Positions 2,719-2,822 of a stretch of DNA of 5,046 bases are shown here, one piece after another (positions within the stretch are counted from its first letter, which is position 1; each line of letters begins with the position of its first letter). The stretch is from the IMG/VR virus record IMGVR_UViG_2703718811_000010. The stretch is one strand, 5' to 3'. The notes under the pieces are model-generated. The model was not told the DNA's origin, searched no databases, and saw nothing but the letters and a program-made list of their open reading frames with translations. The stretch is from a virus. Its lineage: Duplodnaviria; Heunggongvirae; Uroviricota; Caudoviricetes. The position numbers were made by a program, and so were the translations under genes.

Positions 2719-2746
2719 TTGAAAACAACTCTGAAAAAATGATAAT
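2719..2746 (+). promoter_or_regulatory. Sigma70-like promoter candidate (TTGAAA - 16 bp - GATAAT)
   Basis: -35 TTGAAA at 2719-2724 and -10 GATAAT at 2741-2746 with a 16-bp spacer and A-rich discriminator; predicted start about 2753-2755. Confidence 0.45.
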
Positions 2747-2752
2747 AAAAAA

Positions 2753-2822
2753 ATAACAACAATACTATTCTCTTCTGCATGTGCCATCACCTGCCGTTGC
2801 TACAACCCGGCAGGTTTTTTTT
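2753..2822 (+). ncRNA. Candidate small RNA of about 70 nt (promoter plus intrinsic terminator, no ORF)
   Basis: The space between the 2719-2746 promoter and the 2789-2822 terminator holds only a pyrimidine-rich single-stranded stretch (AACAACAAUACUAUUCUCUUCUGCAUGUGCCAUC) and the terminator hairpin. Inference from architecture only. Confidence 0.3.
2789..2822 (+). terminator. Rho-independent terminator on the plus strand (T2)
   Basis: Stem ACCTGCCG (2789-2796) / CGGCAGGT (2808-2815), 11-nt loop, then T8 (2815-2822). The minus-strand version is followed by TGATGGC, so it is unidirectional. Confidence 0.75.

Follow-up and report, generated by a model that had tools for sequence, protein, structure and literature searches.

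A probable diverged paralogue of the prophage small RNA HnrS between Rz and cos in a lambdoid Escherichia coli prophage

A candidate HnrS-type small RNA module

We analysed a 5,046-nucleotide stretch of DNA (virus record IMGVR_UViG_2703718811_000010; hereafter the window) that, judged by its gene content and Pfam domains, covers the end of the late region of a lambdoid Escherichia coli prophage. A segment at positions 2709–2822 on the plus strand, here called unit B, is probably a self-contained promoter–small RNA–terminator "moron" and a diverged paralogue of the prophage small RNA (sRNA) HnrS. HnrS (EcOnc10/11/12) is a 66-nt Hfq-associated prophage sRNA of enterohaemorrhagic and enteropathogenic E. 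coli (EHEC and EPEC) (Poudyal et al., PLoS Pathog 2026; PMC13502914), for which the names EcOnc10–12 were replaced by HnrS in a 2025 preprint, published in 2026 (PMC13502914). An earlier note on this DNA had proposed an Hfq-type, trans-acting sRNA of roughly 70 nt at this position. That proposal gains support from the homology to HnrS, from the slot and orientation of the candidate and from the HnrS literature; the family membership, a second copy upstream (unit A) and a conserved core of 20 nt had escaped the note. By analogy with HnrS, we infer the expression, Hfq dependence and mode of action of unit B.

The architecture of unit B largely agrees with what had been read from the letters (Table 1). 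The sigma70 promoter that had been claimed, TTGAAA-16-GATAAT, is present and matches the consensus at 10 of 12 positions in the promoter scan, and the -35 block, TTATTYCGARTTGAA, is common to every unit B variant, to unit A and to HnrS in the family alignment. A strong terminator with a U8 tail was found as well, in the form of a 7–10-bp hairpin, CCUGCCG...CGGCAGG, with an inner UUG/CAA extension; it is absent from the list of the terminator scan because its loop exceeds the 8-nt limit of that scan unless the inner pairs are counted. Positions 1–35 of the predicted RNA are essentially unpaired in both the minimum-energy and the centroid folds. The unpaired 5′ region that had been described is present; its best conserved part is a 20-nt putative seed (UUCUCUUCUGCAUGUGCCAU) and not the entire 5′ stretch. 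In sequence, unit B has the features of the general class of Hfq-dependent base-pairing sRNAs, namely a terminator with at least six U residues and an accessible, conserved single-stranded segment. It is oriented opposite to the lysis genes and points against the late operon.

Homology to HnrS

The ends of HnrS have been mapped by differential RNA sequencing (dRNA-seq) and Term-seq, and a 66-nt band is seen in northern blots (PMC13502914). The sRNA builds up in stationary phase. HnrS represses hha by pairing at an AGAAG ribosome-binding site (RBS), as validated by compensatory mutations, and 15 of its nucleotides are perfectly complementary to the 3′ end of mazF, a match for which no functional consequence was found (PMC13502914). 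EcOnc10, EcOnc11 and EcOnc12 were detected as peaks of equal height in Hfq crosslinking and analysis of cDNAs (CRAC), in Sp12, Sp10 and Sp9, respectively (PMC4104026 Table S2, Tree et al. 2014). The Hfq-CRAC data for HnrS come from strain Sakai (PMC4104026, PMC13502914). Sakai itself lacks unit B. The element that we located in Sakai Sp10 occupies the same intergenic region and strand as EcOnc11, and the positions coincide once the two genome versions are brought into register by an offset of roughly 128–137 nt, for which the AgvB1 probe served as calibration. Because this element has both the exact mazF-complementary 15-mer (GUACUGAUUGGGUAG) and the segment CUUCUACC opposite GGUAGAAG of hha, it is confirmed as HnrS.

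A profile built from unit B variants alone (V1, the window type, V2 and V3; see below) matched HnrS over positions 3–112 of 116 with E = 7.7e-5 (nhmmer, 2.8 Mb), the copies matched being those of Sakai Sp10, O157:H7 strain 2149 and O111. Identity between unit B and HnrS is 56–60%, and a BLAST search of complete E. coli genomes with HnrS as the query does not retrieve unit B. Queries with HnrS and with unit A return an identical set of 568 genomes each, and unit B is retrieved only by its own query (135 genomes). Canonical HnrS is present in 544 genomes, most of them positive for the enterocyte effacement locus (LEE).

The likeness extends to position and layout. Unit B lies between Rz and cos, near ylcI/ynfO and directed against the late genes, as do the HnrS copies of O157:H7, O111 and Sakai Sp10 with which it was compared. 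The distance from the -35 element to the start is 28 nt in unit B and 29 nt in HnrS. Both RNAs begin with AUAACAA, and A2753 aligns with the 5′ end of HnrS (AUAACAAU), inferred by counting 66 nt back from the U tract, in keeping with the start near 2753 that had been proposed. The two have in common an unstructured 5′ region of about 35 nt, a CUUCU motif and one terminator hairpin followed by U7–8, with a predicted length of 70 nt for unit B against 66 nt for HnrS. They differ in the central 15–20 nt (CUGCAUGUGCCAUCA in unit B, ACCCAAUCAGUACAUU in HnrS). With its centre replaced, unit B has lost the 15-nt complement to mazF: its predicted duplexes with mazF reach −10.7 to −12.2 kcal/mol with no contiguous match, compared with −27.1 kcal/mol for HnrS. 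Since the mazF pairing has no published functional consequence, it may not be a defining feature of HnrS.

Conservation and variants

The unit B module is present, as three variants, in 135 of 5,426 complete E. coli genomes (BLAST). V1 (4 genomes) and V2 (about 39 genomes) are prophage-borne and lie beside Rz. V3 (92 genomes, mostly of LEE-negative serotypes of Shiga toxin-producing E. coli, STEC) breaks the slot rule of HnrS in that it is located in a chromosomal island, where a gene of the AraC family, a DUF1187 gene and remnants of IS66 lie beside it. Among the carriers of unit B are O113:H21 and O91:H21, both LEE-negative STEC, and porcine enterotoxigenic E. coli (ETEC), the last of these with V2. 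V1 together with unit A is carried by OkiPb01678 and ST866, and V2 by GB089.

The window and V3 are alike from about −45 as far as the U tract, and beyond these limits they resemble each other no more than unrelated sequences do. The conserved object is thus exactly the promoter–RNA–terminator module. Within the module, the seed is identical to that of the window at 20/20 positions in V2 and 19/20 in V3 (100% and 95%), compared with identities between variants of 67–69% in the promoter block, 60–73% in the 5′ end and 80–86% in the terminator. Across 11 distinct family sequences, 88.5% of the cells of the terminator stem are paired, whereas slid controls, with registers shifted by 1–3 columns, gave 27–55%. 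Two stem positions change on both sides, one from C–G to A–U and the other from C–G to U–A or U–G. V1–V3, unit A and HnrS all fold alike, into an open 5′ region of 32–37 nt and a single terminator hairpin.

The V3 loci (L003 1454–1570 and L004 1443–1558) are outside any prophage late region. The V3 copy is located about 380 nt upstream of a gene for a 245-aa AraC-family regulator and is co-oriented with it, and this position recurs in the chromosomes of LEE-negative STEC and pig isolates. HnrS activates the AraC-like PsrA/GadE pathway (PMC13502914).

In a scan for an exact 21-mer, 17 true viral contigs were found, all with V1 or V2, together with one chance match in a GC-rich metagenome-assembled genome. 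Two exact scans with 15–16-mers returned chance matches only, besides the known copies. The genome-contig scan used the strict pattern. Seven true matches came from the metagenome scan, all of them V3 and with no further variant among them, and INPHARED phage genomes gave no BLAST match to unit B.

A second unit in tandem

The profile of V1–V3 has a second full-length match in the window, at 2069–2185 (+), about 640 nt upstream of unit B (nhmmer), and this second match recurs on the same strand in the prophage loci that carry unit B. This is unit A, which is predicted to specify a 67-nt HnrS variant and whose promoter and terminator are the other pair listed by the scan of the window. Units A and B both have the -35 block, an A-rich start, CUUCU and a terminator stem with compensatory differences between them. 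Relatives of unit A (about 80% identity) occur in 568 genomes, O157:H7 included, often in multiple copies. In unit A the segment that pairs with hha (AAUAAUCUUCUACCC) is intact and is predicted to form the same duplex as in HnrS (−12.1 kcal/mol); the complementarity to mazF is broken. The tandem arrangement of the two units is also found in V2-type prophages.

An (AAT)6 microsatellite at 2113–2130 overlaps the 5′ end of unit A together with its predicted start (2117), and the nearest genome (L001) has one AAT repeat fewer. A change in AAT copy number would alter either the number of A-R-N triplets in unit A or the spacing from its promoter to its start. In strain GB089 (L002 902–968), unit A is truncated at its 5′ end, with an IS66-family element directly upstream. 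As unit A lacks its promoter and first bases in that strain, unit B is the sole intact unit there.

No open reading frame (ORF) is conserved in the 520-nt spacer between units A and B, and the lengths of the indels there are not divisible by three. A terminator-like hairpin with a T run at 2524–2542 (−) in this spacer is at chance level and poorly conserved in the V2 spacer. The 200 nt that follow unit B, up to the stop codon of Rz (2823–3022), have a conserved counterpart downstream of HnrS in Sakai (L237 2446–2250, −) and hold short GC-rich hairpins, e.g., CCGCGCUCCGUUAACGCGG. Prophages with a single unit have an upstream flank of the unit A type and a downstream flank of the unit B type, from which it would seem that an insertion or duplication between these flanks gave rise to the form with two units.

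Evidence on both sides of the assignment

Several observations weigh against reading unit B as an HnrS-like sRNA gene: (i) The window has 8 promoter-like matches, compared with 7.8 expected from shuffles, and 5 terminator-like matches, compared with 5.3, so that in this AT-rich DNA the promoter–terminator pattern by itself is no better than chance. (ii) V2 and V3 have GATAAA as the -10 element, at unchanged spacing but without the conserved final T. (iii) The fold of the 70-nt RNA, at −13.6 kcal/mol, has a modest z-score of −1.97 relative to shuffles. (iv) All variants come from E. coli and from few independent lineages, and their conservation therefore reflects recent common descent in part. 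(v) Unit B is not carried by any strain with published transcription or Hfq datasets. (vi) Target prediction from the unpaired 5′ region, which the earlier note had recommended, identified no target; in the case of hha, 61% of background E. coli windows pair with the window copy at least as well. In the same background test, however, the validated HnrS–hha pair reaches a fraction of only 0.13. Duplex-energy tests of targets are thus weak either way, and hha stays among the candidates. Conservation of the module and homology to an experimentally mapped sRNA raise unit B above chance.

Proposed function and alternative explanations

In a lysogen, unit B would be transcribed from its own sigma-70-type promoter, a possibility that follows from its location between Rz and cos and its direction against the late operon. 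The product would be an RNA of about 70 nt with an A-R-N-rich 5′ end, an unpaired, pyrimidine-rich seed of 20 nt and a terminator hairpin with U8. Its A-R-N 5′ end and U8 tail would contact Hfq, the A-R-N triplets by way of the distal face of the protein. A-R-N repeats are a motif bound by Hfq (PMC4104026). By analogy with HnrS, the seed would pair in trans with mRNAs of the host or of islands, at ribosome-binding regions rich in purines, and this pairing would block the initiation of translation. With the central region replaced relative to HnrS, the target set of unit B is expected to differ from that of HnrS or to overlap it only in part.

Duplex energies were computed with the input limited to the 5′ region, because energies for the whole RNA, terminator included, are meaningless. 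A scan of the window and its prophage for target sites gave no outstanding site; the best non-self duplexes are around −23 to −25 kcal/mol, many of them alike, and one of them covers the start region of Nu1. The second-best non-self duplex, which is statistically not outstanding, is formed at L001 7163–7190 (+), beyond the right end of the window. This site, which lies between the lysozyme and DUF1327 genes and 26–53 nt upstream of a hypothetical gene on the plus strand, contains an 11-nt perfect complement to the seed (CUGGCACAUGU...). The start codon region of fliC has an 8-bp perfect match (AUGGCACA), yet 34–48% of background windows are as good, and it was rejected as a candidate.

The paralogue reading can be extended to a broader one, which we hold only tentatively. 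HnrS would then be one member of a modular, seed-swapping scaffold that retains its promoter, A-R-N 5′ end and terminator and exchanges its centre. Such a scaffold would have seeds of no fewer than three types, those of HnrS, unit A and unit B; two types can stand in tandem in one moron slot, and one type would have been domesticated in an island of LEE-negative STEC. Unit B would have a regulon of its own in strains lacking HnrS, perhaps combining repression of mRNAs with titration of GcvB.

We regard it as rather unlikely that unit B is instead a functional equivalent of HnrS, repressing hha through CUUCU at the AGAAG RBS and so adding to the dosage of counter-silencing. CUUCU is retained and the predicted duplex covers the hha RBS, but the flanking ACC of the validated pairing segment is lost, CUUCUACC of HnrS being replaced by CUUCUGCA. 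The predicted duplexes with hha have energies, in kcal/mol, of −11.6 (window copy), −12.1 (HnrS), −13.5 (V2) and −17.7 (V3). The V3 duplex, formed by AUACUUCU and AGAAGUAU over the RBS and start codon of hha, beats 99.7% of shuffles and is in the top 7.6% of the background, whereas that of the window copy is at the level of random windows (0.61) and of shuffles (fraction 0.15). V3 may plausibly still repress hha; for the window copy this has no support. In addition, the conserved 20 nt reach well past the complementarity to hha, which points to some other constraint, and the neighbouring unit A already has an intact hha-pairing segment.

It is improbable that unit B is not an independent gene at all, its hairpin ending transcripts from ylcI/ynfO, unit A or the spacer behind a fortuitous promoter, or the whole being a decaying, functionless duplicate. 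Such an origin would fit the chance frequency of promoter-like hexamers in this AT-rich region, the weaker -10 element of V2 and V3 and the fact that the window prophage is a deletion remnant (see below). However, unit B agrees with HnrS, for which a primary 5′ end has been mapped (PMC13502914), in its -35 block, in the spacing and in how far the start lies from the promoter. V3 resembles the window from the promoter block onwards and not only from the hairpin, the seed is more conserved than its surroundings, and unit A has a terminator of its own 520 nt upstream.

We give little credence to unit B as a sponge or decoy for GcvB in the manner of AgvB, with its CA-rich 5′ end (AACAACAAUAC) titrating the GU-rich R1 seed. 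Prophage anti-sRNAs are established in EHEC (PMC4104026), and the predicted pairing of the window copy with R1 (−21.4 kcal/mol over 10 contiguous pairs, equalled by 0.8% of shuffles) and that of V2 (−20.1 kcal/mol) are comparable to that of the validated sponge AgvB1, scored alike (−22.5 kcal/mol). Yet V3 and HnrS have no significant predicted pairing with R1, no part of the RNA is less conserved than the 5′ end, and R1 pairs promiscuously with any CA-rich stretch. Moreover, the A-R-N triplets are explained by binding to the distal face of Hfq, and no similarity to AgvB or AsxR was found by cmscan.

A cis-antisense role is very unlikely. Unit B and the late operon are convergent, and a late transcript crossing 2753–2822 would be complementary to unit B throughout; unit B could thereby cause processing or attenuation of a read-through transcript running from Rz through cos into the packaging genes. 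However, V3 keeps both the module and the seed in an island with no lysis or packaging genes nearby, and HnrS, which is equally placed, has demonstrated trans targets (PMC13502914). The stronger conservation of the 20 nt than of the remainder would also go unexplained.

That unit B encodes a small protein can be practically dismissed: of the two mechanical ORFs that overlap it, both are open in the window and the minus-strand frame is open in V2 and V3 too, with the same initial 6–7 residues, but the plus-strand frame stops after 6–8 codons in V2 and V3, and the minus-strand frame is kept only across the complement of the seed and then diverges, is closed in HnrS (ATG TAC TGA) and lacks a properly spaced Shine–Dalgarno sequence. 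Coding readings on both strands were rejected because the frames are not conserved, the frame-preservation test having had no indels among the variants to work on; this bears out the earlier statement that no plausible coding frame is present.

Genomic setting

The order of features in the window is Rz (−), unit B, unit A, ylcI/ynfO (+), cos and Nu1 (Table 1), with unit B inside a 1.1-kb ORF-poor gap that separates ylcI/ynfO from Rz. Rz is the conserved right neighbour of HnrS-type units, on the opposite strand, and ylcI/ynfO is their conserved left neighbour, on the same strand, as is also the case in the O157:H7, O111 and Sakai Sp10 loci. The cos-type sequence AGGTCGCCGCCC at 1548–1559 is what we take to be the reverse complement of the lambda cohesive end GGGCGGCGACCT.

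From 943 to 5046 the window matches a prophage found in two bovine isolates at 99.6% identity, and positions 1–942 join elsewhere. As the nearest genomes align only from 943, the prophage copy in the window is a deletion remnant; judging by its gene order, it has lost the large terminase gene through most of the tail genes. At the junction, near 909–943, the Nu1-type gene directly adjoins the partial gene for lambda tail assembly protein I, an arrangement that resembles nohD–aaaD in DLP12 of K-12.

In the YlcI/YnfO (DUF3950) gene, the stop codon lies within a perfect 7-nt tandem repeat, ACTGACA × 6.1, at 1899–1941. The YlcI/YnfO protein has 53 aa in the window versus 70–75 aa in the V2 and Sakai loci, which suggests that the repeat replaces or truncates the C-terminus.

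Table 1 Features of the window in order of position.
Feature	Position	Strand	Basis or remark
Tail assembly protein I fragment	364–912	−	
Nu1-type small terminase gene	909–1436	−	Next to cos-type sequence
cos-type cohesive-end sequence AGGTCGCCGCCC	1548–1559	−	Read from letters
YlcI/YnfO-family gene	1756–1917	+	Pfam DUF3950, E = 4.5e-19
Unit A promoter region, TTGAAA at 2079–2084	2069–2116	+	Aligns with HnrS promoter
Unit A, predicted 67-nt HnrS variant AUAAUAAUAAUAAUCUUCUACCCUUAUCCAAUCUUUACUGCUGUGCGCCAACACAGCAGUUUUUUUU	2117–2183	+	About 80% identity to canonical HnrS
Unit A terminator and T run	2153–2176	+	Terminator scan
ORF beginning MAHAEEN, 32 aa	2692–2790	−	Mechanical ORF list
Unit B upstream block TTATTTCGAG and -35 element TTGAAA (2719–2724)	2709–2724	+	Promoter scan, alignments
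Unit B -10 element GATAAT	2741–2746	+	16-nt spacer after -35; 6 nt before predicted start A2753
Unit B, predicted 70-nt sRNA AUAACAACAAUACUAUUCUCUUCUGCAUGUGCCAUCACCUGCCGUUGCUACAACCCGGCAGGUUUUUUUU	2753–2822	+	Fold; start from alignment with and homology to HnrS
Unit B A-rich 5′ end, consecutive A-R-N triplets (AAC AAC AAU)	2753–2767	+	Differs among variants
Unit B conserved putative seed UUCUCUUCUGCAUGUGCCAU, 20 nt	2768–2787	+	Unpaired in predicted fold
ORF, 49 aa	2779–2928	+	Mechanical ORF list
Unit B intrinsic terminator	2790–2822	+	Hairpin 2790–2814, U8 2815–2822
Rz lysis gene	3023–3490	−	Pfam Phage_lysis, E = 1.9e-47; last gene of late lysis cassette
P22-type antirepressor gene	3647–4216	−	
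Lysozyme gene	4490–5023	−	

Significance

HnrS has been portrayed as a single, 100% conserved, multicopy sRNA restricted to LEE-positive E. coli, and its prevalence was analysed by k-mer mapping of the HnrS sequence (PMC13502914). Unit B suggests that HnrS has diverged relatives that screens by sequence identity would miss; at only 56–60% identity, it is itself probably missed by k-mer mapping of HnrS. In these relatives of HnrS the pairing region is a different one and is strongly conserved; they are found in further pathotypes and may be arranged in tandem, and unit B is a candidate regulator for LEE-negative STEC and porcine ETEC. As the scaffold is the same, the seeds are different and some strains have both, the evolution of target specificity in a phage-borne sRNA becomes directly testable. 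What makes the finding interesting is that two seed types stand in tandem and that pathotypes without HnrS have an alternative seed that is conserved; the importance of the finding is moderate, and the system is not of a new kind.

Comparison with known systems

Searching the window and five related loci against Rfam 15 with cmscan (E ≤ 1) gave no bacterial sRNA family, only spurious eukaryotic and archaeal matches, and no match at that threshold to AgvB (RF02702), AsxR (RF02703), Esr41 (RF02676) or STnc100 (RF02076). We found no description of the unit B paralogue in Rfam 15 or in the literature that mentions HnrS, and full-text searches with the seed and HnrS sequences (as DNA, RNA and reverse complement) returned no paper.

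Among core-genome sRNAs, the ChiX/MgrR-type "class II" Hfq sRNAs resemble unit B in having an A-R-N-rich stretch, a pyrimidine-rich anti-Shine–Dalgarno seed and a terminator with a U tail. For these sRNAs, as for unit B, RBS occlusion would be the mechanism to expect. Unlike unit B, their genes are not prophage-borne, and we know of no sequence relationship between them and unit B.

AgvB and AsxR are Hfq-bound prophage RNAs of 51–60 nt that, as in unit B, combine a conserved terminator-proximal part with exchangeable pairing regions. AgvB has a CA-rich GcvB mimic at its 5′ end, and unit B may have one likewise, according to the predicted pairing. The two systems differ in location, AgvB and AsxR being encoded downstream of PR′, between moron coding sequences and the lysis genes, rather than between Rz and cos (PMC4104026). 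They also differ in which part varies, namely the 5′ end in AgvB and AsxR and the centre in the HnrS family.

The Pas sRNAs (PasA–D) and Esr41 are intergenic, borne on prophages or islands and Hfq-associated, with a terminator and a U tract, an architecture like that of unit B. The Pas genes are located beside sialate esterase and holin genes, beside Q and LpxR, or within the structural operon, and they are present in INPHARED phages (bioRxiv 10.64898/2026.05.13.724894). Judged by this described position and by the lack of a match in INPHARED, unit B differs from the Pas sRNAs.

The kind of element is already known from prophage-borne Hfq sRNAs and specifically from HnrS; what is new is this diverged paralogue. 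Given its homology to HnrS but replaced seed, unit B is filed as a probable paralogue within the HnrS family and not as HnrS itself.

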